From assembly GCA_965658655.1 (NCBI GenBank), contig CBFHTA010000002.1, positions 96,001 to 160,000 on the forward strand: 64,000 bases of DNA, written 5' to 3'. Source of the DNA: Candidatus Babelota bacterium. GTDB lineage: Bacteria; Babelota; Babeliae; Babelales; CAIQNR01. The notes under the pieces were generated by a model. That model saw nothing but the letters and a program-made list of their open reading frames with translations, was not told where the DNA came from and did not search any database. A program made the position numbers and the translations under genes. Positions 36,679 through 60,597 of this stretch are shown here, piece by piece; position 1 is the stretch's first letter, and every line of letters starts with the position of its first letter.

Positions 36679-39600
36679 TTATACAACCCTTGATTGAGTA
36701 AAGAATGTATTAATAAAAGTCAAAACTCTGTTTTTTAAATCCGATACCGCAAGATGCAAGGGTTGCTCGGGCATTTGAAACCAAGTAAATCGTGTGGAAC
36801 GTGAAGGTGGTTCTGGTGCTGGACGAGAAGCTCTTGGTGCAGGTTGCTGCTGTTGAAAATCTGTTTGCTCTTGACCTGTAGTCCTAACCGCTGTTGAACG
36901 AGAAGGTGGTGCTGGTGGTCCCTGGTAAGAAGTTCCTCTTGAACCTGAATCTTGTTGCGGAAGTTTTTGACCTCTTGAGACCATAGGTCGATTTTCTGAA
37001 CCCGAAGATTGCTGCGCTTCTCTATATTGTTGCCCTTCTGAAACTGGAGCTCTAGGCGGTGCTTTTGGAGGAGATTTTTTGCCAGCTATCGCACTTTGTA
37101 CTTCACTGTCTAAATTACCTTGAGAAATCAATTTAAGACTTCCCGGCTGGACCTGAGCATTTGAAAATTGTTGTCTAATTAAACTCAAACCTTGTCCTCC
37201 TACAGAGTATCCATTAGGATAAAGATAATCTGAATTACCTTTTTTCACCTCGTAGATAGCACCGTTAGAATAATCTACATAGGTACCAACCCCAAACGTA
37301 AGCACAGCATTATTGAACATTTCAATTGCACTCATAGTATTCCCTTTACCGGCGTTGTAACGTGTTTTATCATTTTGATAGTACTCTTCTATTGTTGCCA
37401 ATGGCGGAATACGATACATAACGGTTGGCGTTGGTTTACTAAATCCAACAAGATAACTGCCAATAGAGTTCTTTGGAACTTGTATAGTCATTTTGCTATT
37501 TCTATCAACTTCTTGCACAAGCTGTATGTTTCCTTCTGCATTTGAAATTACATTTACACCATCTTTATACTTTGCAAGATCCTTCTTAGATGCATACGAA
37601 TAACCAAATCCGTAAATTGCTTGGACTTGTTGATTCCCGAGAGCAACGTAAGAACTTTGAACCGCTACTCCAGAACGTGATTTTTGACCCGTTACAGAAT
37701 AGTCAGTAACTAAACCTGGAATACTTATTCCACCAGGCGCTTGATACTGTGCCATTTGCCCAGGACGTGGTAAACCGCCTTGATTTATAAAATAAAGTTT
37801 TGTGTTAGAAGAAGGAGAAACAGGATTTATAGTTGGAACAAACGCAAGCATCGACTCTTCTTTATTTTCAAGAATGCCACAAAGAGTAGATCCAAAAACT
37901 GGAGTACCTTGTGGGATACCTTTTATTCCTTCTCTATTACCCATACCCATACCAACAAATGGTCTTCCATATACTGTTGCTCGAGCAACCATATTATTTT
38001 GAGCCAGAGGGTATTTAAATCCTTGTATGCCACCTTCTATATAACGCTGACTACCAAATTGATACTGACGAGGCTTATCTCCAGCTGCAGATGTCAATGT
38101 AATTGCATCGTATGCCATACCACTTGCAGAAAGCTTATATTCAATCTCATAAAGTGCCCAACCACGTTGAGAAGCAGCCTCTACAGCAGAAACAAATGCA
38201 ACCTCTGCTTTTTGTTGCTCTGTCATACCTTGAGTATCAAACCCTTTTGGCAAATTGAGTTCTTGCATTTTGCCCTCTTGTGAACCTGGTGCAATTATTT
38301 TTTGCACAGGAATAATTTCTTGACTAGCACCCTCTCCTTTTGTTTCATACCCAATATACATTGTTTGTTTTTGAGCATTTTGAAATCGATATATACTGGT
38401 AAATGGTACATACATGTACTGCGTATAACCTTGCCCAGTATTAGCCAAAGCATTAAGATTTTGCCCTTGCCCAGAACTGTTATTTGCCTCACCCCATACA
38501 AAGATAGGCATTTCAACATCAACAACTTCTTGCTTATTTTCCCCTTGAACAATAGGGTACGCAACAACGGTAGGAATCATACGTGGCTGGCCGTTTACAT
38601 AATATTCATCACCACTCATAAGATCTACAAAGTAACCAATATTTGCAATATCTTTGCCATCTTCAGAACCACCACCATATAAGGTTCCTGTCATATCTTG
38701 TACTAATACATAGTATGCTTGAGTAAGACGATGATAATAGTAATAATACTTTTCACCTTTTTCGCGGTTAATAGCCGGAGCAACATTTTTGGCAAGCTTC
38801 ATATAATAACCATCTTGGCCAAAACCTGGAATCAAAGTTTTTTCTCCGGGAGCAAGTGGCAAAGGAACATTTGTTACCGGAATGGTAAGAGATTGTTCTC
38901 CGTTAGGCTCAACCACAACACCATGGGCCGCACGCATAGCTTCAAGCTCAAATCCTTTCATAGCAGATGTTGGCACAAGATTCTCTGCTTTAGGATTAGT
39001 TGGAACAGCGTAATAAACACCCACATTACTGTCGCCGGCTTCTGAGGTAGCGTTGAAATCAAAGAATGTATAAAGTGTTGGCATTCTTCCATTTTCATCT
39101 TTATCAGAGAGAACCGTTTTTGCTTTTAAGAAATACTTACCACCAACTTGTATAAGATTAGAACTTGGAACAGCCGGGTTATTAAGAGTTGGCTCTGTTA
39201 CTGTTCGTGCTTTTTCCATTACTGCTATTGGAATAATAGGAGCTGTATCTATAAGTGATCGTGGATCTTCAAGCGAAGATACCTCATTAATATATTGAGT
39301 ATTAAGCTCGATAATCCTTTGTGCAAGATCTACATTAATTTGTACTTTATTCTGCGTTTGCACAAGTTCCATTGCTCTTCTTGGTACACTTTGCTCTCTA
39401 CCTACACCAGTTTTTTCATACATTTTGCCTAAATAATTTTGCTTACTTTGACCATTTTCTAAATACAACGTACCGGTAACCAAACTCAACATAGCCTTTG
39501 TATATGGAGTTACGGCCTTACCACCAGTAGAAGCACTATTTGGCATATCGGTAACCACTAGATAGTCATGTGCCGAATCATACGATTGACCTTCTGGAGT

Positions 39601-42600
39601 AAGTGCATAAATATAGGTTCCTTTGTTGACAGACTCTAAACTTAAGCGAAGTTTGAGTCCGCCAAAGTAAACGGGGTATAATGTTTTTTGAATTTGTCGC
39701 TGGGCTGATTGCAATGCAGTATTCAACTCTCCTTGTAACCCAGAAGAAAGATTTGCGAATGCCGCATTTAGATTTTGAGTCGTAACTGTTTGGCCAATAT
39801 CTCCTTGATTAGTTAACGCTGCAGCAAGAATTTCTTGAGGACTCAATCTCAGTTGCGTTCCTGTTCGAACTGGAGGAGAAACTTTTCCTTTTGCAGGGTC
39901 AGAACCACCTGGCAATACACTTTGCCCAACAGGTTGTAAACTACACTCGTTTCCAGATAGCGATGCATTAGGAGAGAAACAAGCATAAGGAGCAACATCT
40001 TGCATATCCCCCATTCCTTTAGCACCTGGATAAATATACGGTGTATACACCTGACCAGTACCCACATTAATTAAATACTTACCTGCAACCACTTCAGTGT
40101 AAGGTCTTCCAATACTATGTAACTGATCTATAGATTTTACATTACCATCTTCTGGACCAAGTGCACATACAAAGATATCTGTTTGAGGAAAGCCCGAAGC
40201 ATGATAAAAGAAGTTACCATTTGCAACATCTTGCCTACTTGTTGCAGTAATATACACATTTCCATATTGACGTTGAGTGTAATTAAATGGCCCCATAAAT
40301 CCACTCTGAACCCAATAATTATTTCTATCTTCTGATAGCGACCATTCTGTATAAGCAGCAAGAATACTTGGGTAAAAAGTGCCTAGTTTTTTACCATATG
40401 TTGGACTACTGATACCTTTAAAGAAACGAGCCTGTTTAAGAGGTCCTGTGTCTGCAGTATTGCTCAAGTCTCGTGCAAGGTTAAATCCAGAGAATGCTTC
40501 TGGCAGCACACTCATTAACGAACCATTAACTTTGTCTTTACCATGCGAAATAACCAGTGTAGTTGCATTCTTACACGGTTGCGTCATTGGCCATTGAACG
40601 GTTTGACTCTGCACTGCTTTTGCACTTTGTTCAGCAGCACCACCCGATTGCTCTTCTTGCCCTGTTGGAGAGAAAGTAGAAGATTGCCCACCTCTAGAAC
40701 AGAAAGAGAATCCAGTAAAGAATAAGAAATAAAGTGGAGGAACATTAATCATTAATTGTTCGCTTTTCCACTCTGCTGCTCGTGGCGTTTTATTAATAAT
40801 ACTATTAATAGTATTATACCTCTCTTGAGCACTTGAGAGCATTTTTTCAAGTGGCTCTAGATTTTTTGCTCCCATAAGCGCAGATACTTGTTCTTCATTA
40901 AATCCAGCTTTCATCAAATAGCTACCAGCGCTTTCTGCTCCATATTTATCAATCACTCCAATCGCGTATTCTTTTGTACCAGCAGAGAGCCCTCCTAAAG
41001 AAGCAGAAAGTTTTGAAAATTTAACACCATAATTAAGAACGGCATCTTTTGCACTATTATACTCTTGCAACATTTGAGGATCGGTAATCATTCTATTTAC
41101 AGGATTGTAATAACCTGGCATAAAGGCAGTTCCCATATATACATTTGGAACTACCCTAATTGTTTCTAATGAGCGAGTGGGGCCATTCGGTCCCTTCTTT
41201 TCTACATAAATTTGATCTTGTTGTTCTCCCACCCATGAACCTGTTTGAAAACCATATTTACCTTGACCATTAAGAGAGAAGAAAGAACCTCGATTAAGTG
41301 GATGCATATTAACGGTATACCATAATGGTAAAGGTTCATAATCAGTGTCATAACCACGTCCTGTAATCAAACTAAACAAACCTTGCACACCATGGGTACC
41401 CAAGCTTCCTGTCATCTGATCAAGGCCAAGGGGAAGAATCTCGAACTTACCCGTAGATGCGCCACCAACAGGTACTACGTAATCGGGAACGCCATTCTTT
41501 CCTAATACACCGTCACCACTTTTTGTCACCTTATACACATAGAATCGAGATAGATACTCTTTCTTCTGTGCCTTATTCCAAGAAGTATATAAAGCATTTT
41601 GTTGAGCTGCGCTAGATGCTTGGCTAAGCACGTCTCCCATATCTTTAATACTGTTTTCTTGTTGCTCAAATGCGTCTCCATCTAACAGCTCTGTTAGAGG
41701 AACCCTGGTCAAAGTATAATTAGTATAGGTAGTAAATGGACCATCAACAGCTGCATCTGTACTATATTTTGCCATTGCTACAATCTGACTCATTGCTCTT
41801 TCTCCAATAGAACCTGCTCTCATAAGGAGCCTTTCTATTTGTTGCAACGCATAGGTGGCCATAGAATTATCTGGCACTCCATTACCGTCAAGATACGGAG
41901 TAAGTAATTTTGTATCACTTGCTACTTTCCCTTGTGCAGTAGTTGCCGGTCGAGTTCCTTGGTCATCTCCCTTTTGATAGGTAAGACCAGTTGTTAAACT
42001 AGAAATATAAACAATATCAGGATTTGGAACCATTTTGAGCGTATAACCTTTTACCGTTTCACTACCAGCAACAGCTTTACCTTTGCCTGTCTTTTGTTGC
42101 TTCTCTAAGTCACCCTTTACCACCCGTGGTACAAGAAGCGGAACAATACTTTTATTTGCCGACAAACAAACAACATACTCTTTAAGTGGCACATATGAAT
42201 TTGAATTGTTTCGTAATAAACCATGAAGTGAAGGTGTCACTGTAGTAGCAGTTTTTGCTTGTGTGTTATCTGAAACAATTTCATAAACATACAGGTTATA
42301 TGCATTAAGGTTTGCGTCAGGAGAAAAACCATATTCTGGTGTATCTACTTGCTGTTCTCCAAGTGCGTTGGCAACTGCACTTTGTGCTTGTCTAAGAGCG
42401 CTCTTTTCTTTTTCGCCATACGTAACCTTATTACCGTCAAACGAAATACTCGATTTATAACTTTGATCAATTTCAGCAAGACTTTTTAAAGCTTTTTTTA
42501 AATCTGAACTAAGCGGACGAAGAGAATTATTAAGAATAATATTTAAGAACCCCGTACCTTCCATTTGACGTAATTGCAAAGTACCAAAACCTTTTACGTC

Positions 42601-44472
42601 TGTAGGAGATCTAAATGCAGCAATGGTTTTATAAAACAATGGCGGTGGTAGATTTCCTCCCACAGTTCCTGGAAGCGTTGATTGTGTAGAAGCAGAACCA
42701 GTAGCTGCGTATTGACGCACCATAGGAGATAACAACATTGCTTTAATTATAGGATCGTTAAATGAATTTTTTGCTCCATGTGACATTAACGAAGAAGAAT
42801 CCATACGCAAATAATCAAGCGCATCAGAAGTATGCGTAAAAGTATTAGCGCTTGTTTTAGTTACAAACCCACTCGCAAATGGTTCAATAACACCAATCAT
42901 AGATTGGGTAGGCTGAAGATAGTTTGCAGCTTCGCCCGTACCTACAAATACATACCCATTATTTAAACAAACCATCTGACCGTTAAACTGAGATCCTCCA
43001 ATATAAGAAGTTCCCCAGAAACTTTGTTGTGGTGCACCGGTTACATAGAAGTTGGCAGTTCGTAAAAACTGAGAGTTAAAGTAACCAGAAGACTGCTTAG
43101 TACCATTTGGAACTTCACAATAAAGGTAAGCTGAATTTGCAGGATTCTGTTGATCAATTAATTGTGGGGGAATCTGCAACCACAAATTACCAAATGGCTG
43201 AGCGTCTCCAATAGTTTCGAGCAACGCCATTCTGTTCTCTTTTGCCACCGTCATTTGATACAAGGCACTCGGCACAGTAAATGCAAGAGCCTGACCAAGC
43301 AACATAACAAAACCAGAAACCAACATTCGCACAACGCTCAGGGCTCCTTTTCCTGCCCACTCAAGGTTTCTACCAATTCTTTTATCTATAGAATCAAGTT
43401 TTCGAATAGCTTTTTCGTTTTTCGCTTGTTCTTTCAACTTATCATTAAGTTCATCTTCTAATCCTGTAGTATCTTCACCATCGTTTCCTGCTCTGGCGAT
43501 GCGATCTCTTACATCTTGAACTTCATCTGCCAATCGTGGTCGCTCCACTTTTATCAACCGTTCTTGTTCTTCTATCGTTCTTTGAGACCTCAAAGATTTG
43601 TCAGACCAATCATGATAGTCATCCACCTTACCTCGAACATACCTTGTTGTACCACTCCAAGCATCATCAACTTTACCTTTAGCTCCTCTCCACGCCCTTT
43701 TTAAAAAGCCCGCATCATCGGCATCATTTTTTTCACCCCGAGTCATTGTGTCTCGTAAATCTTTCATATCTTTTCGGTTTTCATTCAAGCGATCTTCTGC
43801 ATCATCAAGATTTGCCTGAGCTTCCTTCACTTCTCTAGAGGTACTATTAGGGTTTTCTTTTACCTTTTCTAAATTTTGTTGAGCCTCATTAGCTTTTTGA
43901 TTCAAATCTGTGTTTTCTTTCTTTAATCTCTTATACTGGTCTGCCTTACTTGTGCTTCCCTCAGACCCTTTGATAGCACCATCAGTATCGTTATGCATAT
44001 CTAATCGAGCTGAATTATCGCCTGAAAGGGGATCTCCACTCTCGGGATCAACTCCGTCAGGACCCTGTTGAACATTTATGTTATCCATCGCTTGGTTGAT
44101 TTTACCAACATCATAGTTATCGTTATCAGCCTTCATAACAGCTCTGGCATTAGCAACGTCTTGATCTGTAATACTTGCTTTTGCTTCGTTAATAGCCTTT
44201 ACTTGGCTAGAGTCAAGGTCTTCTAGCTTTAAGGTTTTCCCCGTTATTCTCTCGTATTTTGCTACAGCTTCTATTTGGTCTTCAGAAAGATTTCCAAGGT
44301 CGTCACCTTGAAGGTCTCCATCTTTAACCGACAAACCGTCTCCAAGGTCTGCATCATCATCCGCCATAGCATCTGCCGCAGCGTCCATAGAAAAAACAGG
44401 AGAAAAAGAGATAAATGGGAGTGCCGTAATTAACAATGTTAAGAGTGTGAGATTTTTAAATTTAATTTTCAT
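36679..44472 (-). CDS. 2597-aa secreted protein: acidic N-terminus, coiled coil, hydrophobic segment, cryptic repeats, Pro-rich tail
   Basis: Uninterrupted 7.8-kb ORF; signal peptide ending VFS-MD; upstream TTGATT-18-TAAGCT promoter-like element; own terminator. Confidence 0.9.
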   Translation of the reverse strand: MKIKFKNLTLLTLLITALPFISFSPVFSMDAAADAMADDDADLGDGLSVKDGDLQGDDLGNLSEDQIEAVAKYERITGKTLKLEDLDSSQVKAINEAKASITDQDVANARAVMKADNDNYDVGKINQAMDNINVQQGPDGVDPESGDPLSGDNSARLDMHNDTDGAIKGSEGSTSKADQYKRLKKENTDLNQKANEAQQNLEKVKENPNSTSREVKEAQANLDDAEDRLNENRKDMKDLRDTMTRGEKNDADDAGFLKRAWRGAKGKVDDAWSGTTRYVRGKVDDYHDWSDKSLRSQRTIEEQERLIKVERPRLADEVQDVRDRIARAGNDGEDTTGLEDELNDKLKEQAKNEKAIRKLDSIDKRIGRNLEWAGKGALSVVRMLVSGFVMLLGQALAFTVPSALYQMTVAKENRMALLETIGDAQPFGNLWLQIPPQLIDQQNPANSAYLYCEVPNGTKQSSGYFNSQFLRTANFYVTGAPQQSFWGTSYIGGSQFNGQMVCLNNGYVFVGTGEAANYLQPTQSMIGVIEPFASGFVTKTSANTFTHTSDALDYLRMDSSSLMSHGAKNSFNDPIIKAMLLSPMVRQYAATGSASTQSTLPGTVGGNLPPPLFYKTIAAFRSPTDVKGFGTLQLRQMEGTGFLNIILNNSLRPLSSDLKKALKSLAEIDQSYKSSISFDGNKVTYGEKEKSALRQAQSAVANALGEQQVDTPEYGFSPDANLNAYNLYVYEIVSDNTQAKTATTVTPSLHGLLRNNSNSYVPLKEYVVCLSANKSIVPLLVPRVVKGDLEKQQKTGKGKAVAGSETVKGYTLKMVPNPDIVYISSLTTGLTYQKGDDQGTRPATTAQGKVASDTKLLTPYLDGNGVPDNSMATYALQQIERLLMRAGSIGERAMSQIVAMAKYSTDAAVDGPFTTYTNYTLTRVPLTELLDGDAFEQQENSIKDMGDVLSQASSAAQQNALYTSWNKAQKKEYLSRFYVYKVTKSGDGVLGKNGVPDYVVPVGGASTGKFEILPLGLDQMTGSLGTHGVQGLFSLITGRGYDTDYEPLPLWYTVNMHPLNRGSFFSLNGQGKYGFQTGSWVGEQQDQIYVEKKGPNGPTRSLETIRVVPNVYMGTAFMPGYYNPVNRMITDPQMLQEYNSAKDAVLNYGVKFSKLSASLGGLSAGTKEYAIGVIDKYGAESAGSYLMKAGFNEEQVSALMGAKNLEPLEKMLSSAQERYNTINSIINKTPRAAEWKSEQLMINVPPLYFLFFTGFSFCSRGGQSSTFSPTGQEEQSGGAAEQSAKAVQSQTVQWPMTQPCKNATTLVISHGKDKVNGSLMSVLPEAFSGFNLARDLSNTADTGPLKQARFFKGISSPTYGKKLGTFYPSILAAYTEWSLSEDRNNYWVQSGFMGPFNYTQRQYGNVYITATSRQDVANGNFFYHASGFPQTDIFVCALGPEDGNVKSIDQLHSIGRPYTEVVAGKYLINVGTGQVYTPYIYPGAKGMGDMQDVAPYACFSPNASLSGNECSLQPVGQSVLPGGSDPAKGKVSPPVRTGTQLRLSPQEILAAALTNQGDIGQTVTTQNLNAAFANLSSGLQGELNTALQSAQRQIQKTLYPVYFGGLKLRLSLESVNKGTYIYALTPEGQSYDSAHDYLVVTDMPNSASTGGKAVTPYTKAMLSLVTGTLYLENGQSKQNYLGKMYEKTGVGREQSVPRRAMELVQTQNKVQINVDLAQRIIELNTQYINEVSSLEDPRSLIDTAPIIPIAVMEKARTVTEPTLNNPAVPSSNLIQVGGKYFLKAKTVLSDKDENGRMPTLYTFFDFNATSEAGDSNVGVYYAVPTNPKAENLVPTSAMKGFELEAMRAAHGVVVEPNGEQSLTIPVTNVPLPLAPGEKTLIPGFGQDGYYMKLAKNVAPAINREKGEKYYYYYHRLTQAYYVLVQDMTGTLYGGGSEDGKDIANIGYFVDLMSGDEYYVNGQPRMIPTVVAYPIVQGENKQEVVDVEMPIFVWGEANNSSGQGQNLNALANTGQGYTQYMYVPFTSIYRFQNAQKQTMYIGYETKGEGASQEIIPVQKIIAPGSQEGKMQELNLPKGFDTQGMTEQQKAEVAFVSAVEAASQRGWALYEIEYKLSASGMAYDAITLTSAAGDKPRQYQFGSQRYIEGGIQGFKYPLAQNNMVARATVYGRPFVGMGMGNREGIKGIPQGTPVFGSTLCGILENKEESMLAFVPTINPVSPSSNTKLYFINQGGLPRPGQMAQYQAPGGISIPGLVTDYSVTGQKSRSGVAVQSSYVALGNQQVQAIYGFGYSYASKKDLAKYKDGVNVISNAEGNIQLVQEVDRNSKMTIQVPKNSIGSYLVGFSKPTPTVMYRIPPLATIEEYYQNDKTRYNAGKGNTMSAIEMFNNAVLTFGVGTYVDYSNGAIYEVKKGNSDYLYPNGYSVGGQGLSLIRQQFSNAQVQPGSLKLISQGNLDSEVQSAIAGKKSPPKAPPRAPVSEGQQYREAQQSSGSENRPMVSRGQKLPQQDSGSRGTSYQGPPAPPSRSTAVRTTGQEQTDFQQQQPAPRASRPAPEPPSRSTRFTWFQMPEQPLHLAVSDLKNRVLTFINTFFTQSRVV

Positions 44473-52889: not shown

Positions 52890-53408
52890 TTAATATACGG
52901 GGCAGAATCCAAGTAAATGCAAGCCAGACTGCATCTCTTCTTTAACCGTGTCATGCTCGCCTTCTGATTCAAAAAGCAAAAGACCGTGGTTATTATATTT
53001 AACCGGCCAAGAAAGATAGTGGGAATTATTGAATGCAAGCTCTTGAGAAAGTGCTTCTACTACCTCTTTTTCTGTGTGATTATTTTTTTTAATGCTCTCA
53101 CGCATAACCTCTCTGACCTGATTATTAAAAGGCGCACGCTTCATGTGCTCACTAAATGTTTCTGGATCGTGCCAATGATTCTGCTCATAAGATTCCGGAT
53201 GATGAAAACCAGCAATACCTTTTAAATGGTTAAAGTCTGGATTATCTATAAAGTAAGCTGCTTTTGAAAAATTAAAACAACTTTTCTGACTCATAGAATG
53301 GAGTAAGAACTCGAGCATGTTTTCTTGTCCGTGAAACTTAATAAGTTGCTCAGGGAGGCTTGTAACACAGAGCAGAACCTCTTGCACTCTTTTTTGGTCT
53401 TTCTTCAT
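52890..53408 (-). CDS. Hypothetical protein, possibly stand-alone GAF-like
   Basis: GAGGAGGGGGG RBS before MKKDQ; FSKAAYFIDN...LKGIAG and HGLLLFE resemble GAF strands. Confidence 0.6.
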   Translation of the reverse strand: MKKDQKRVQEVLLCVTSLPEQLIKFHGQENMLEFLLHSMSQKSCFNFSKAAYFIDNPDFNHLKGIAGFHHPESYEQNHWHDPETFSEHMKRAPFNNQVREVMRESIKKNNHTEKEVVEALSQELAFNNSHYLSWPVKYNNHGLLLFESEGEHDTVKEEMQSGLHLLGFCPVY

Positions 53409-53582
53409 CCCCCCTCCTCTTTTCTTAAAATTTGTTTTTATCCAATAGATAAGAGAATAGGATATCTTTCTTAAAAAAATCAATACTTAAGTAAAGTAAA
53501 GTATTTACTTTATGTTTTTGGATTTATAGGATTATAAATTGTTCTACTACATAAGTTTTAAGCCAGGCGTAAGGAGAATTTC

Positions 53583-54644
53583 TTGAAAAAGCTAAAGCGT
53601 TACTTCTACTTTTTTTTGTTGACCTTAGTTGTATTCTCACTCAAGAGCAGAAGCCCGCTGCGCCGACGCGATCGTTATGTTCCAACTATTTCAACCGAAT
53701 GGGAAAAGCGTCTTTCTGGCGAAAAAATCTACACTTTAACCGACCCCTTCTTGGAATTGTACCCCCTTTTTAAAACATTTGACTTAGAACACTTTAAAAA
53801 AAATAGCTTGCCCGACGGTCCCATTACCTATAAAAACGAACAAAACAAGACCGTAGACGGAAAAGAATTAAAAAAAGAAATGGCACATCTATTTGAAGAA
53901 GTTCGTGCTCAAAAAAAGAAATTTACTCATTTTGAAATATTAAAAAAAAGAGATTTTACCTGGCGCAAGCAGGCAGGTCTCTTAGTTCTTAAATCAAAAA
54001 AGTATCCGTTTGTAGTAAAACTGTTTATGGAAACCCCAAGAAGTTTTGTTCGCCCTTACAATAAAGGATTCGAACCTCATTGTATTTTTGTAATTAGTGG
54101 AGGCTCAACTCGACACTTGCTTGGATTTACCCGCATAAAAAATGCACACGCTATCAAACAGCGAATCAGTGAAAATCCTTATTGGTCTAAGCGTGTTATC
54201 GTTCCAAGAAAATGGTTTTGGTATCCTGAAAAATATCGTTGGATTCATTTAGATGGTTACCGTATTGGCAACCATGATCATATTTCGATTAAAATGCCTG
54301 CGGTATACGCTATTGTTGCTGACTATATAGACGGAGAAAGAGAATTTTCGCTTCTTTCAGGAGAAGATAGAAAAACCGCTGTAGACATTAGTAACTACTT
54401 ATTATGTAGCCTCGATCCACATATTAATAATTTTTTAGTAGAGAAGAACACGGGGAAAATTGCAATTATTGATACTGAACATTTCCCTACAATGGCAGGC
54501 TTCAAAGAGCACCCTCGCATGACCAGCTACACTTCTTGGTATTTACACCTCTTCACAAAGTATATTCGTAATCGCTTTGGAAGAACAAAAAAGGAGAGGC
54601 GAGACATGCAGAGATATCCACAAACTCCGTTCTCATTACCTTAA
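53583..54644 (+). CDS. Exported protein with protein-kinase-like fold motifs
   Basis: AAGGAG RBS with TTG start, hydrophobic leader; FVVKLF, DPHINNFLV, IAIIDTE in kinase order. Confidence 0.65.
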   Translation: MKKLKRYFYFFLLTLVVFSLKSRSPLRRRDRYVPTISTEWEKRLSGEKIYTLTDPFLELYPLFKTFDLEHFKKNSLPDGPITYKNEQNKTVDGKELKKEMAHLFEEVRAQKKKFTHFEILKKRDFTWRKQAGLLVLKSKKYPFVVKLFMETPRSFVRPYNKGFEPHCIFVISGGSTRHLLGFTRIKNAHAIKQRISENPYWSKRVIVPRKWFWYPEKYRWIHLDGYRIGNHDHISIKMPAVYAIVADYIDGEREFSLLSGEDRKTAVDISNYLLCSLDPHINNFLVEKNTGKIAIIDTEHFPTMAGFKEHPRMTSYTSWYLHLFTKYIRNRFGRTKKERRDMQRYPQTPFSLP

Positions 54645-54689: not shown

Positions 54690-55874
54690 CTAATAATACC
54701 TTGGAGCCGTTTGTTCGAAGTTCCGCTGACGAATTATTTCTCTTTGCCCTTCTTTTTTGGTTTCAATTTCCTTTAATGTTTCATTTATACTATCAATACG
54801 TTCACTAAGAAACCTTTTCATACTCTTTCCATCTCTTCGATCTCTGATTGATTCTCTTCCACTAATTGATTCAGTTTGCAATTGCCCCCATTGTCTTTCT
54901 AACCGAGATCTTAAAGCCTGAAGTTCTTCAGGACTCTTGCTGCTTTCTGCCTTTGTCATTTCTCCATTTGTTTGTCTCATAAATTCATCTATTGCATTAT
55001 CACGGCTTGCTTTAAGTTCATTTTTATAGGTTTGATCATCATCAATTTGACCATCCTGCCAGCTTTTGTTTCTTTCTACCATACGATCAAACAAACGATC
55101 TTGGTCTGTTTTTAAGCTTGGTCTTTGAAGTTTTTCTAATTTTGTACCTATCTCATCAATACGTTGCTTAACGAAGTCCTCCATACTTTCTTCACCGTTT
55201 TCATCTGTTCCACCTGTGATTGGTTCTTTTTCCAAACTCTCCAGCTGTCTTTCTAACCGAGACCTTAAAGCCTGAAGTTCTTCAGGACTCTTTCTGATTT
55301 CTGCCATTGTCATTTCTCCATTTGTTTGTGTCATAAATTCATCTATGGCATTATCACGGCTTGCTTTAAGCTCATTTTTATAGGTTTGATCATCATCATT
55401 TTGACCATCCTGCCAGCTTTTGTTTCTTTCTACCATACGATCAAACAAACGATCTTGGTCTGTTTTTAACCTTTGGGTTGAAGTGCGCTTGTCAGAATTT
55501 GTAAAATCTAACCCACGAGAATCTGAAACTTCAGCAACCTTTTTAACTATTGAAGCACTATCTGTTCCGTCGGCATTTACGCTTGAAGCATCAACGCTTC
55601 CTTCCATGGAAACAGGACTTTCTGCACCGCTCCCTCTACCAAACCACGATTTAATTCTATCGAAAAAACCGCGTTTTCGGGGTCTTTCTAATGTAGTGGT
55701 ATCCCTATCGTCACCTCTTTCGGTATCATGGTCACCATCTTGACCATCTGAATGATCTTGCTGATTCCCATTGTCACCAGTATTGTGTTCTTCAATCACT
55801 TCGCCATCCATAGCGGACAAAGAAAGGGGGATTGCAACTGCTAAAAGCAATAATGCCAATATATTTTTCTTCAT
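54690..55874 (-). CDS. Secreted family member 3 with internal 118-aa duplication
   Basis: Signal peptide ending LSA-MDG; N-terminus nearly identical to 55885..57381. Confidence 0.85.
   Translation of the reverse strand: MKKNILALLLLAVAIPLSLSAMDGEVIEEHNTGDNGNQQDHSDGQDGDHDTERGDDRDTTTLERPRKRGFFDRIKSWFGRGSGAESPVSMEGSVDASSVNADGTDSASIVKKVAEVSDSRGLDFTNSDKRTSTQRLKTDQDRLFDRMVERNKSWQDGQNDDDQTYKNELKASRDNAIDEFMTQTNGEMTMAEIRKSPEELQALRSRLERQLESLEKEPITGGTDENGEESMEDFVKQRIDEIGTKLEKLQRPSLKTDQDRLFDRMVERNKSWQDGQIDDDQTYKNELKASRDNAIDEFMRQTNGEMTKAESSKSPEELQALRSRLERQWGQLQTESISGRESIRDRRDGKSMKRFLSERIDSINETLKEIETKKEGQREIIRQRNFEQTAPRYY
54892..55469. repeat. Intragenic direct repeat: two near-identical 224-bp copies, 354-bp period
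   Basis: 54892-55115 and 55246-55469 both encode LKTDQDRLFDRMVERNKSWQDGQ...ELQALRSRLERQ. Confidence 0.95.
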
Positions 55875-55884
55875 AACCTCTCCT

Positions 55885-57381
55885 CTATTTAAACCAACCT
55901 CTAGCTCTTCCTCTTTCTGCTACTTTACTCACGGCTTCAGGATTATCACGTCTCCATTGTTCAAGCTGTTCCGAATCCCTACGCGCTTCTCGTTGTTCAT
56001 CCGTAAGCGACCGACTCCTTCTTGATGGATCTGTTGTATTATCTGTTCCCAAATTATATCTTTCCCTCAACGCATTATTTCTCAATTTTTGGTAAGTTTG
56101 CATATGTTGTTGCTCTCGTTGCATTTTTTGTTCTCGAGTTAACCTTTCAGCTTTTCTTCTATAACCCACTTCTCTATCTAATGATTTCACTTTAGTATCA
56201 AGGTAATTATCACCAGTATGCTGAGTATAATCCTTAGTAGCAAAGTCCTCGGCGCCAAATCCATCGTTCCTTATCATCGCTAGGTTAGCGCTCTTTTTTA
56301 GATCTGCTTCTCTATTTCTTTGATATTCAAGATGCTCTAAAAGAGCAGTTTTTTGTTCAGGAGTTTCAGCATCACGTATAAGTGTGTCTACCTGTTTTTT
56401 ATATTCTATTTTTGCATTACCAAGTTGTTTTCGTATATCCACTCTATTGTCGCCTTCAAACTTGTTATACAAGTTTGAAATTTTATTGAATATTTTTCTT
56501 TCCTCTTTAAATTTATCGTCATAGGAATGAACGTCTTTCTCTTGCTGTTCAACATAACGAGCTCGATCAGCATTATCTTCGAACGTTGCTGACTTCTTCA
56601 ACATTCGCTCTGCTTGCCTTCTTGTAAGATGATCCCCACCCTGTTCACCCTTTGCAATACTCTTGAGCTGAGCTTCTCTTGCACCTTGAGACTTTAATCT
56701 ATCAAGTTTAAATTCTTCTGCAGTATGTGGTGTTACCCCATCTGCATTATTTTCTATGTTTTCTGTTCCACCAGTACCTTCACCTCGCATTCCCTTTAAT
56801 ATTTCTCTGGCACGTGCATGTTCTCCAGATCTTGAACCATCTGCTAATATTTCCCTTGCTTCATCACGCAAGTTATCATTTGATTCTTTAAAATCTTCTT
56901 CAAATGTGTTCCTCACATTGTCCATATCTTTTTCATATCCATCGTACTCAATACTAGAATCGTTTTTTGCATTGTGCCATGCGTTTCGAGCTTTTTCTCT
57001 TTTTTCAAGATGAAAATCTAACCCACGCAAAGTTGAAACTTCAGCAACGTTTTCAGCTATTGAAGCACTTTCTCCTGTGTTGGCAACAGCACTTGAAGCA
57101 TCAACCGAACCTTGCATCTCAACAGGTGTTTTTGAACTGCTCCCTCCGCTAAACAATGAACGGATTCTATCAATAAAACCTCTTCTTTGAGGCTTTATTG
57201 AGGTATTGTTATCAACTACATCTCGCTCGTTGTCACCATTTTGACCATCTCGACCATCTAAATTATCTTGCCGATTCCCATTGTCACCAGTATTGTGTTC
57301 TTCAATCACGCCATCCATAGAAGACAGAGAAAGAGGAATTGCAACTGCTAAAAGCAGTAATGCCAATATACTTTTCTTCAT
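55885..57381 (-). CDS. Secreted family member 2, charged helical C-terminal region
   Basis: Signal peptide ending LSS-MDG; shared N-domain up to RGLDF; ends RGRARGWFK. Confidence 0.85.
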   Translation of the reverse strand: MKKSILALLLLAVAIPLSLSSMDGVIEEHNTGDNGNRQDNLDGRDGQNGDNERDVVDNNTSIKPQRRGFIDRIRSLFSGGSSSKTPVEMQGSVDASSAVANTGESASIAENVAEVSTLRGLDFHLEKREKARNAWHNAKNDSSIEYDGYEKDMDNVRNTFEEDFKESNDNLRDEAREILADGSRSGEHARAREILKGMRGEGTGGTENIENNADGVTPHTAEEFKLDRLKSQGAREAQLKSIAKGEQGGDHLTRRQAERMLKKSATFEDNADRARYVEQQEKDVHSYDDKFKEERKIFNKISNLYNKFEGDNRVDIRKQLGNAKIEYKKQVDTLIRDAETPEQKTALLEHLEYQRNREADLKKSANLAMIRNDGFGAEDFATKDYTQHTGDNYLDTKVKSLDREVGYRRKAERLTREQKMQREQQHMQTYQKLRNNALRERYNLGTDNTTDPSRRSRSLTDEQREARRDSEQLEQWRRDNPEAVSKVAERGRARGWFK

Positions 57382-57422
57382 CCTATGCCCTCCATCTTAT
57401 TCGCTTCTTTTGTTCATTACAT

Positions 57423-58562
57423 TTAAAATTTCCACCATTTTCTTTTCTTGTACGTTTCCGCTAAATCGTTCATATTATCATCAAATTCCTGTGCACTGTT
57501 TTGCATTCTCTCTGAAGTTTCTGCCCCCTGTTGTACTCGCTCTGTTCTTTTAGCCATACCTGCATCAAGAGCTGTACCTTGCCCTTGTTGCATCCGGGCA
57601 GCACGTCTTGCTTTTGCTGTATCAAGCGCTGCTCTCATTTCAGGAGTATAACGACCTCTTATTGGCTGACTTTCCAAATTATAACGGTTAATTCTGCCTT
57701 CATTATTCCCTATGTTTTGACCCCTTTGGTTAAGGTCTGAACCTGAAAATCCTTCACTGTTTCTGGATATTCTCGGGTTAAATTGATCTGCTTCATCTTG
57801 GATATCTTTAGCACTTTTCGCTTTTTCGGTTGGTTCCTCTGTTCTTCCAAATAAGAACCAACTTCTTTTTTTTCTCTCTCTAATTTGACTAGTACGCTTT
57901 CTTAACTCATTATTAACTCTATCTATATTTTTTAAATAAAGATCCATTTCAGATGATCTAGATGTACCACCTTCATATCCTTTATTAAAGTCATCTTCCA
58001 GAGCTTTTCTTTTATCGTTCAAAGCGTTCATTTCATCAAACGCTGAATCACTTCTTCCACCCCACCAAGATCTCTTATACTTACCTTTAAAACTAACTGC
58101 ACCATTTTCGTCGATATTTGCAGTAAGATTTAATCCACGATTTGCAGTTCTAGCTATATTTGCTTCTGACTGTTCTGCTGAGGGTGCATTGGATTGATTA
58201 ACGGTTGAATCCATATCTTGGCCAACAATCTCTGCAGGAACATTTTGTGAACCTCTTTCAGGCACATTACTACTTCGGCTAAACCATCCACTTTTTTTTT
58301 CTGTTCGCCTTGTGCTTGTTTCAGTAAAACGACTCATACCATCTGCTAGATTATTTGCCTTTTCCATCAAGCCGTCTGAACTTGGCTGGCTCTCTTGAAA
58401 TCGTTCGATTCGATTTCTAAAGTCGTCTACAGGCGGTGCTTCATTATCACCACTCATACCTAAACCCATACTATCCGGCTCAGTAGGCGGTTCAAAACCA
58501 TCCATTGCGCATAGTGAATTTGCTGAAATAAACAATAGTAAAAATAAGCTTATTTTTTTCAT
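57423..58562 (-). CDS. Secreted family member 1 with C-terminal tomosyn-like R-SNARE motif
   Basis: Signal peptide ending LCA-MDG; C-terminus KRTERV...SERMQNSAQEFDDNMNDLAETYKKRKWWKF. Confidence 0.8.
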   Translation of the reverse strand: MKKISLFLLLFISANSLCAMDGFEPPTEPDSMGLGMSGDNEAPPVDDFRNRIERFQESQPSSDGLMEKANNLADGMSRFTETSTRRTEKKSGWFSRSSNVPERGSQNVPAEIVGQDMDSTVNQSNAPSAEQSEANIARTANRGLNLTANIDENGAVSFKGKYKRSWWGGRSDSAFDEMNALNDKRKALEDDFNKGYEGGTSRSSEMDLYLKNIDRVNNELRKRTSQIRERKKRSWFLFGRTEEPTEKAKSAKDIQDEADQFNPRISRNSEGFSGSDLNQRGQNIGNNEGRINRYNLESQPIRGRYTPEMRAALDTAKARRAARMQQGQGTALDAGMAKRTERVQQGAETSERMQNSAQEFDDNMNDLAETYKKRKWWKF

Positions 58563-58696
58563 TTTCTTTCTCCATTTTTTCCAGTCCCTATTGCTTAAGC
58601 TTGAGACTTAAATCTATATGTTAAAAGAATAACAATTTGGGAAGACCAAAGTAAAGAGAAAGCCCTGAAAAGGGCATCCTAAGCTTATTATGAGAA

Positions 58697-59185
58697 TTAA
58701 ACAGTCACCGTATTTTTAACAGTAGAAAAAATTGAGCTTATTTTATTAGACACGTCACTGAGTACCATTTTAGCCTTATTCAAGAAGTAAACGCGTCGTG
58801 TGTGCTTATGTTGCTTGTAGTCTTCAAAAAGACGATAGCGCACTAAAAAAAGACGAGTATCCCTTGACTGAGAGTCAATATCAACCTGTTTATTTTCTGA
58901 AAGAATATTGTAATGTTTTTTGTTTTTAATCTCCAAACTACTCATTCCATCCATCCGTAAACGACGCAATCGTTTTTGTCTACGAGACAAAGAAAGGCGG
59001 CTTTGACGATCTAAAAAATTACTGTAATAAGCCCTAAAACCTTCTTGCTCATTAGAATCTGGGGTCATACGTGTAATAAAATCATCGAGCGATTCTTTAA
59101 AAACATGCGCGCTGGGCACAAAGGCTGTGAGTTGAGAGAGACTGGTAAGTGCCAATACAAGCACAAAAGAGTTATGCTTCTTCAT
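58697..59185 (-). CDS. Secreted basic hypothetical protein
   Basis: AAGGAAAG RBS; signal peptide ending LTA; directly downstream of dnaA. Confidence 0.7.
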   Translation of the reverse strand: MKKHNSFVLVLALTSLSQLTAFVPSAHVFKESLDDFITRMTPDSNEQEGFRAYYSNFLDRQSRLSLSRRQKRLRRLRMDGMSSLEIKNKKHYNILSENKQVDIDSQSRDTRLFLVRYRLFEDYKQHKHTRRVYFLNKAKMVLSDVSNKISSIFSTVKNTVTV

Positions 59186-59211: not shown

Positions 59212-60597
59212 TTATCGTAAAATTTCTTCCTCAAGTCTACGAATAGTCGACCGTAAATTGCTATCTTTTTCAGCGTTCTCTTGCACTCTATCAAAAGCAT
59301 GGATCACAGTTGAATGGTCTTTACGACCTAAGAATCCACCAATTTCTCGTAACGATCTTTGGGTCATCTTCTTCATTAAATACATAGTCAATTGGCGTGC
59401 AAATGAAAGATCTTTCGCCCTGCTGTTAGAACGTAAATCAGATAAACGATAGGAGTAATGTTTGCAAACGCATGAAGCAATTCGATCAAAATTTATTTTT
59501 TCTTTTTTCTTTGGATCTGGTTCTCTATGCAATACTTTGCGTGCTAATTCAACAGAAAGTGGCTGCTTAGTTAATGAAGAGAAAGCTAACACACGCACCA
59601 ACGAACCTTCTAATTCACGAACATTAGAAACCGCTTTTTGTGCAATAAAATCTGCCACGTCATCTGCCAATTCTTCGTTATGCGTTTGTGCTTTGCGTTT
59701 TAAAATTGCAATTTTTGTTTCTAAGTGTGGCTTGTGAATATCAGCAACCAATCCCCATTCTAAACGAGTACACAAACGTTCCTCGAGACCTTTAATCTCT
59801 CGTGGAAACAGATCACTAGAAAACACAATTTGTTTACGAGACTCATACAACGAATTAAAAATATGGAAAAACGCTTCCTGCGTTTGTTCTTTATTAGAAA
59901 TAAACTGAATATCATCTAACAATAGAATATCGATCATGCGATACCGCTGTTGAAACAAATGAATTTTATTAAATCGAATTGCAGAAATAAATTCATTTAT
60001 GAATCGATCAGTTGTTTGGTAAAACACCACCGCTTTACTATCTCGCTTTTGAATAGCGTTACCAATAGCATGCAATAAATGTGTTTTGCCCAGCCCTGAA
60101 CCACCATAAAGAAAAAAGGGATTGTATTGATCACCAGGATTCTCCGCAATTGAACGAGCTGCGGCGTAGGCAAGCGAATTACTAGGACCAACTACAAAAG
60201 TTTCGAACGTGTATTGCGGATTAAGATAACCATAATTTTTACGTGTTTTGTGAACAAGCGCATTCTTTACCTTACCAGGAATAGAACCTTTCTTTGGTAG
60301 CGCATAGGCAAGCAAAGAGCTTTTCTTCTGCTCTTGATTCTGTTGTTCTGTAGGGCTCAAAAATGTCACCTTTAACGAATCTACATGTAACAGACGCGCT
60401 AAATGTGTTTGAAACAACGGTTGATACTTACTCGCTATCCATTCTTTTACAAAAGTATTGGGTGCTTGAATAATAATACTTTTTTCTTCAGGACTCCAGT
60501 GTGCAATTTTAACAGCCTTTAACCATGTTTCAACAATACGACTGCCCGCTTCTTGGCGAACAATAGAAAGAAAATTTTGCCAAACATCGGTTAACAC
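59212..60597 (-). CDS. dnaA: Chromosomal replication initiator DnaA
   Basis: YTFETFVVGPSN, YNPFFLYGGSGLGKTHLLHAIGN, LLDDIQF, NVRELEG, GRKDHSTVIHA. Confidence 0.98.
   Translation of the reverse strand: MLTDVWQNFLSIVRQEAGSRIVETWLKAVKIAHWSPEEKSIIIQAPNTFVKEWIASKYQPLFQTHLARLLHVDSLKVTFLSPTEQQNQEQKKSSLLAYALPKKGSIPGKVKNALVHKTRKNYGYLNPQYTFETFVVGPSNSLAYAAARSIAENPGDQYNPFFLYGGSGLGKTHLLHAIGNAIQKRDSKAVVFYQTTDRFINEFISAIRFNKIHLFQQRYRMIDILLLDDIQFISNKEQTQEAFFHIFNSLYESRKQIVFSSDLFPREIKGLEERLCTRLEWGLVADIHKPHLETKIAILKRKAQTHNEELADDVADFIAQKAVSNVRELEGSLVRVLAFSSLTKQPLSVELARKVLHREPDPKKKEKINFDRIASCVCKHYSYRLSDLRSNSRAKDLSFARQLTMYLMKKMTQRSLREIGGFLGRKDHSTVIHAFDRVQENAEKDSNLRSTIRRLEEEILR

Follow-up and report, generated by a model that had tools for sequence, protein, structure and literature searches.

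A tandem trio of putatively Sec-exported proteins with a common leader and dissimilar bodies in a Dependentiae (Babeliales) genome

The Dependentiae parasitise protists, are widespread and have hardly been cultured; the tools with which they manipulate their hosts are mostly ORFans. In the excerpts considered of its description, Chromulinavorax destructans, a member of this phylum of protist parasites, carries signal peptides on 44% of its coding sequences, enriched in ORFans and ankyrin proteins, and has a Sec system and possibly outer-membrane vesicles (PMC6561590). Here we analyse three tandem genes, denoted m1, m2 and m3, in a 64,000-nt stretch of DNA (the window; positions 96,001 to 160,000 of contig CBFHTA010000002.1, assembly GCA_965658655.1) from a reduced Dependentiae (Babeliales) genome of 928,713 bp, which is held in four contigs and is 95% complete. 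With a probability of roughly 0.6, the trio is a lineage-specific multigene family whose products are exported by Sec and act at the parasite-host interface. It is not a swappable toxin cassette.

The signal-peptide ORFans of Dependentiae, which are presumed to be secreted host-interaction factors, are like this family in belonging to the same phylum, in carrying a Sec-type signal and in matching no known family. The share of signals can be set beside the 44% given in the excerpts for C. destructans in a crude survey only, in which 344 of the 895 proteins of this genome look signal-bearing; a junction of a small residue, Met and a polar residue was found in 38 of these. Unlike the ORFan account for C. 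destructans, as far as the excerpts go, the present genome holds a defined family of nine members, with a predicted disordered leader of ~100 residues and a boundary at RGLx[LF]. Literature searches, some of them ill-targeted and without any return on Babeliales, found no paper on the family or its leader, and the proteins fit a new, undescribed family within this known class of ORFans.

Other systems offer more distant parallels. The SVM effectors of phytoplasmas are small secreted proteins of a reduced intracellular bacterium, and like the present family they carry a conserved N-terminal export region on diverse, fast-evolving and often clustered secreted proteins. The SVM signal profile (PF12113) gave no match to m1-m3 at E <= 0.1 or to the other six paralogs at E <= 0.01. 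Unlike in the SVM case, the host bacterium here is presumably diderm, because secretins are present, and the conserved part runs ~100 residues past the signal peptide. The RxLR proteins of oomycetes and the PEXEL (RxLxE/Q/D) proteins of Plasmodium also come from parasites of eukaryotes and also combine a signal, a disordered stretch with R-x-L and a variable body. In the present family, which is bacterial, the motif lies ~95-125 residues past the signal rather than within ~60, and its fifth residue is L/F rather than E/Q/D. Polymorphic toxins such as CdiA, Rhs and MafB resemble the trio in their conserved N-terminal part, a sharp switch at a motif and a tandem arrangement, but differ from it in that the leader-body pairs here are stable across organisms and come with no toxin domain or immunity gene. 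The known delivery domains (FHA repeats, RHS, PAAR and LXG) had no Pfam match in the paralogs. The variable lipoproteins of mycoplasmas resemble the family in concept only. There is no lipobox: m2 and m3 have no Cys, and the single Cys of m1 precedes the A/MDG junction and does not lie in a lipobox. Antigenic-variation (Vlp/Vsp-type) lipoproteins were dropped as a candidate for this reason.

The three proteins have a common N-terminus of MKK, a hydrophobic core and [AS]MDG, after which come a run of acidic residues, the basic-aromatic motif, P-x-x-[MI]-x-G and, last, RGL[DN][FL]. The original prediction had described this signal, linker, basic-aromatic motif and RGL in three co-oriented genes, and motif comparison confirmed it. 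In their leaders (residues 1-124) m2 and m3 share 64% identity (BLASTP E 6e-40), and beyond residue 124 BLASTP found no significant similarity between the two. m1 alone is only marginally similar to either (E 0.039 to m3, 0.66 to m2). Its signal reads ...SLCA/MDG, its basic-aromatic motif is KKSGWF (residues 89-94) and its RGLNL lies at residues 142-146; further KRSWW/KRSWF motifs occur inside its body, and KKRKWWKF stands at its C-terminus, as ...GRARGWFK does at that of m2. A metagenome protein, P0009, bridges the trio, with matches to the m3 leader (E 3e-10), the m2 leader (E 1e-9) and m1 across the RGL motif (E 8e-6). Judged by these similarities, m1 is a true but distant relative of m2 and m3.

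The leader module is not confined to the trio and is present in nine proteins of this bacterial genome. These were found with a hidden Markov model (HMM) built from the m2 and m3 leaders, then by a motif survey and then with a nine-row profile; a whole-genome search with the profile returns exactly the nine paralogs, each at E 1e-31 or better. Their leaders are ~130 residues long, and eight of the genes lie on one 240-kb contig. All nine have the signal and the acidic linker, and RGLx[LF] is found at residues 116-142 in eight, with 116-146 as the overall span of the motif in the precursors, and the ninth reads VGLDL; over the 895-protein set, RGLx[LFIVM] occurs 26 times in all. Cataloguing the bodies attached to the module, as had been suggested, showed the nine to be mutually dissimilar.

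Outside this genome, relatives are few. A word-indexed search of 5.8 billion proteins (m2 leader; m2 body; 15-row leader alignment, longer proteins) returned own-genome proteins only, and an exhaustive profile search, run over 1.84 billion representatives, yielded 14 matches at E <= 1e-3, half of them from the same genome. Six of the seven others (P0008-P0012 and P0014) show the full architecture, with RGL at the same place in five. The seventh, P0013, looks like a false match and was set aside. The contigs that carry the outside relatives are 2.8-31.6 kb long and belong to Logan or ENA assemblies; a scan of metagenome contigs with P0008 gave one weak match of 27 residues, which was of no use. 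Among 200 other Babeliales genomes the nine-row profile found weak signal-plus-linker matches only (best 25 bits), and in a genome of the same genus a 15-row profile found seven weak matches (E 3e-7 to 6e-3), many of them in tandem arrays. That genome has two arrays of three tandem genes with a signal and an acidic linker (L042, G001:C10, 888-4876; L044, G001:C6, 2209-5538). One same-genus tandem pair is mosaic, being 49% identical overall with a near-identical block of ~100 residues, which suggests gene conversion among tandem secreted genes in the genus.

A common N-module on bodies dissimilar in sequence, as originally proposed, is supported by both BLASTP and phmmer. No pair of paralog bodies fell below E 0.045 in BLASTP, and in phmmer searches of the genome ORFs (open reading frames) each body matched itself alone. 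Comparison of the 36 body pairs with hhalign gave one weak match, between m2 and m1, over 80 columns (E 8.5e-4, probability 24%); the next best was m1 with p70 (8%), and the remaining pairs stayed below 4%. Because of this weak match, distant homology between the first parts of the m1 and m2 bodies is possible. The claim that the three proteins diverge completely after the leader stands for m3 against the others and needs qualifying for m1 against m2.

Bodies were also compared between organisms by BLASTP after the leaders had been trimmed, nine paralogs against six relatives giving 54 pairs. Matches were found in five pairs, each within its own type, and in none across types, the six relatives being a small sample. 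These were p70 with P0014 (E 1.6e-43) and with P0010 (E 3e-38), p163 with P0011 (E 1.7e-10), m2 with P0008 (E 6e-9) and, weakly, p73 with P0012 (E 0.003). P0008, which comes from another organism, matches m2 in leader and body. Since the bodies of the relatives match their own type only, leader-body pairs are stable between organisms. On the evidence of conserved counterparts elsewhere for the m2, p70, p163 and, weakly, p73 bodies, the paralogs are old. The same matches speak against the swapping of payloads by recombination as a general mechanism, which the original prediction had put forward. For the m3 body no relative was found, and it had no match in the 200 other Babeliales genomes.

Only m3 looks like a recent chimera, or the product of 5' gene conversion with m2. 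The DNA shared by the two genes begins ~12 nt 5' of the start codon and breaks off abruptly with the final RGLDF codon, and direct repeats, found independently, start exactly at that junction (55503 and 57013). The near-identity noted earlier at ~55763-55874 and ~57273-57381 was measured as 90%, in two 73-nt blocks with a 3-nt indel between them. Synonymous divergence (dS) is uneven along the leader, at 0.18, 1.0 and 0.32 in three segments, and the ratio of nonsynonymous to synonymous divergence (dN/dS) is ~0.8 overall, all of these values being based on small site counts. Counterpart leaders in different organisms are 20-35% identical, no better than the bodies (24-35%), and in global alignments unrelated charged bodies already reach ~25%. 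The identity of the m2 and m3 leaders (58-64%) is an outlier beside these counterparts, and therefore indicates recent duplication or gene conversion. Together with the sharp end at RGLDF, it points to leaders that were homogenised or duplicated recently. Within the m3 body a repeat of 255 nt is 92% identical between copies, with a period of 354 nt, equal to 118 residues, and a dS of ~0.15. The pair may serve as an example of how the family grows, by tandem duplication, 5' homogenisation and the gain of internal repeats.

Searches of all nine paralogs against Pfam and NCBIfam gave nothing above threshold, and no toxin or enzyme domain, except for a partial UPF0158 (PF03682) match in the first repeat of m3. 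This match reaches 33.7 bits, where the cut-off is 21.1, but covers only profile positions 14-93 of 157; repeat A of m3 alone reaches 26 bits, and repeat B has no match. The family is rich in charged residues, with a hydrophobic content of 26-32% against 40% in the proteome and 0-2 Cys per protein. Bodies that are charged, poor in Cys and without recognisable effector or toxin domains do not bear out the idea of effector payloads.

In a single-sequence AlphaFold model of m3, residues 1-133 have a predicted local distance difference test score (pLDDT) below 50, and the body is all helical (pLDDT ~70-80), with two predicted helical repeats of ~118 residues. The m2 leader, modelled with a 15-row alignment, has a mean pLDDT of 53 and a predicted template modelling score of 0.14, and is helical only in the signal peptide and at residues 105-118, just N-terminal to RGL. 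The leader is thus predicted to be disordered and the m3 body, the one modelled, to be helical. A sequence search of the PDB with m3 gave no match at E <= 1, a Foldseek search of the PDB with the m3 model gave none at E <= 1e-3, returning generic helical repeats and bundles only, and the ESM Atlas gave no usable match to m2. Several members have aromatic C-terminal endings (WWKF, GWFK, RYY, SFY and VNF). An aromatic beta-signal at the C-terminus was considered and dropped, being inconsistent among relatives.

The basic-aromatic motifs of m3 and m2, RGFFDRIKSWF and RGFIDRIRSLF, rank at the 98th-99th percentile of proteome windows for helical hydrophobic moment. The membrane-targeting amphipathic helices of MinD and FtsA offer a parallel to RGFFDRIKSWFGRG and RGFIDRIRSLFSGG, which are short, basic-aromatic and high in this moment (99th percentile), and motifs akin to them are found at the C-termini of m1 and m2. 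Unlike the exported family, MinD and FtsA helices act on the cytoplasmic face of the bacterium's own membrane, and only the type of motif is alike. In the AlphaFold model of m3 the basic-aromatic residues 70-77 are helical, at pLDDT <50; in the m2 leader model they are not. A role for the motif as a membrane-binding element fits only loosely.

In the reading that we prefer, that of a Sec-exported family acting at the parasite-host interface, the proteins would cross the inner membrane via Sec, with a signal peptide that ends just before Met-Asp/Glu and precedes the ~100-residue acidic leader. They would then leave the cell, probably through an apparatus of the secretin or type II secretion system (T2SS) type, or else in vesicles, and act where parasite and host meet. 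There the basic-aromatic elements may bind membranes peripherally, and the helical bodies may serve as scaffolds or binders rather than as enzymes. The bacterial genome encodes two secretins and one GspE/PilB-type ATPase of the T2SS or type IV pilus. VirB4, FHIPEP and TolC-type OEP, the markers of type IV secretion, type III secretion and TolC systems, had no match in the genome, which is 95% complete. With a phylum of protist parasites, Sec-type signals, and secretins together with such an ATPase, the host-facing rather than antibacterial role that was first suggested is plausible.

Several points weigh against this reading. Signal peptides were called by eye and by a crude rule rather than by a dedicated predictor, and the case for secretion beyond the periplasm is built only on the set of machineries that the genome encodes. 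The T2SS as a rule takes folded substrates, but the leaders of the trio are predicted to be disordered. Once the leader is removed, the bodies of m1 and P0009 are not significantly similar. The arginine of RGL is apparently not kept in the same-genus relatives, which by eye read QELGF there, and P0008 reads NRLDS at the RGL position. Not every member has a strongly amphipathic basic-aromatic motif; m2, m3 and some others do. A loose basic-Trp-aromatic pattern occurs 10 times in the 5,796 residues of the family and 14 times in the other 279,500 (~34-fold), a contrast that is only indicative because the pattern was defined after the family had been seen.

Alternatively, the proteins could be components of the bacterium's own envelope or surface (periplasmic, associated with the outer membrane, or part of a coat) that are not delivered to the host, with the basic-aromatic elements anchoring to the bacterium's own membranes. 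This is clearly less probable, although a real possibility: a Sec signal brings a protein no further than the periplasm, proteins that are long, charged and helical typically serve in structure or tethering, the aromatic endings of several members would suit it, and no dedicated host-injection system was found. The family is, however, very fast-evolving, narrow in its spread and detectable only by profile even within the genus, whereas core envelope parts are usually better conserved. Nor do the proteins have a lipobox Cys or a beta-barrel or known envelope domain that could be found, and in relatives the same signal and acidic linker precede stretches that by eye resemble eukaryote-type domains. 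A polymorphic effector cassette that joins one delivery module to exchangeable payloads by recombination is quite improbable. The sharp stop of m2/m3 similarity at a conserved motif, the tandem arrangement, the mosaic identity along the leader and the mosaic pair in the same genus would all be expected of one, but bodies are conserved with their own leader type elsewhere (0 cross-type matches in the 54 comparisons), no body without a leader occurs elsewhere in the genome, toxin and enzyme domains were not found, and the m3 junction alone looks recombinational. Immunity genes are missing too: as the original prediction had it, none lie between the members, where gaps of just 41 nt (m1-m2) and 10 nt (m2-m3) leave no room for any gene.

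It is very improbable that the ORFs are non-functional or that repeats led to a false assembly of m2 and m3. All are orphans, and contigs from public sequencing runs do break at repeats, but these are ORFs of 379-498 codons in DNA of 37% G+C, each with a GGAG-type ribosome-binding site 5' of its start, and relatives exist in other organisms. The assembly was checked against contigs from two public DNA runs that belong to a single study; one run may be the source sample. These contigs fit the assembled order and break only at repeats, their depths are those expected if each piece is present once, and one contig, spanning 55770-57302, links the m2 end with the m3 start. No variants were seen over the locus in the contigs of the two runs. 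A single 'joint' among them has sides of 21-24 nt and probably belongs to another organism.

Two bolder readings concern the leader itself. It might have a dedicated role in this Dependentiae lineage as the signal for a second step of sorting or processing, a bacterial counterpart of RxLR/PEXEL, which would mark Sec-exported proteins for passage through the outer membrane or for entry into the host, with cleavage at RGL perhaps freeing the helical body; we think this unlikely. The R-x-L-x-[FL] core might also mimic a short linear motif of the host, its general shape fitting the cyclin-docking RxL motifs of eukaryotes. The common leader offers a handle for drawing up a list of candidate secreted factors from one marine lineage, and for asking whether more than the signal peptide directs the fate of a protein.

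The features of the locus and the other paralogs are collected in Table 1.

Table 1. Coordinates of the trio, its parts and the further members of the family. Plain positions are those of the window; C1 and C2 positions are those of contigs of this bacterial genome.
Feature	Position	Strand	Length	Description
m1	57423-58562	minus	379 aa	family member with divergent leader
m1 leader	58125-58562	minus		residues 1-146, last codons RGLNL (58125-58139)
m2	55885-57381	minus	498 aa	leader = residues 1-123
m2 leader	57013-57381	minus		signal peptide, acidic linker (predicted disordered), RGFIDRIRSLF (57151-57183)
RGLDF of m2	57013-57027	minus		final five codons of m2 leader
m3	54690-55874	minus	394 aa	leader = residues 1-124
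m3 leader	55503-55874	minus		signal peptide, acidic linker, RKRGFFDRIKSWFGR (55635-55679), RGLDF (55503-55517)
m3 internal tandem duplication	54865-55473	minus		copies 54865-55119 and 55219-55473
terminator-like hairpin	58662-58675	minus		3' of upstream 162-aa gene, 5' of m1
p70	C2:70920-73529			family paralog
p73	C2:73723-75159			family paralog
further paralog	C2:78234-79628			family paralog
p163	C2:163906-167172			family paralog
further paralog	C2:174163-176133			family paralog
further paralog	C1:6966-9878			family paralog

m1, m2 and m3 are long ORFs arranged head to tail downstream of dnaA (59212-60597), from which they are separated by a small conserved signal-bearing gene (58697-59185). 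The gap 5' of m1 is 134 nt, and a conserved convergent gene lies 45 nt beyond the 3' end of m3. Since no terminator-like site was found on the strand of the trio between its members, the three genes probably form one transcription unit. In related loci dnaA is followed by the small signal-bearing gene and then directly by a convergent 350-aa gene. The closest relative (L045, with 88% DnaA identity) has one unrelated 290-aa gene at the place of the trio, which has no obvious signal and no similarity to m1 (tblastn E 5.3). As relatives have nothing there, or one unrelated gene, the trio sits in a lineage-specific gap. L045 has the gene order and content of Babeliales, yet is filed as a metagenome-assembled genome of Alteromonas, and is probably mislabelled or a contaminated bin. 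The neighbours at 58697-59185 (minus strand, 162 aa, signal-bearing), 53583-54644 (plus strand, 353 aa) and 52890-53483 (minus strand, 197 aa) have no family match, and are syntenic with dnaA and pgk in many Babeliales genomes.

Signals of this kind are also seen outside the family. In this genome and in Babeliales loci L014-L040, many end in a small residue, Met and then Asp, Glu or Gln, and in relatives the Met junction and acidic linker precede stretches that by eye resemble ankyrin, F-box, WD40 and zinc-finger domains. A 2597-aa ORF in the window (36679-44472, minus strand) has a signal of this type (…SPVFS/MDAAAD…) and begins with acidic sequence, with no Pfam family at E <= 1e-3 and no RGLx[LFIVM]. 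A second tandem family, outside the window, comprises five adjacent genes at C2:157-3897 and one at C1:520256-520966; all start with MNKVWMLGL(L/F)FISIGQLNGM(D/E) and then diverge. Directly before p70, at C2:70157-70792, lies a signal-bearing protein of 211 aa, most of which is built of GGM(N/T)S(Y)G(N)S repeats.

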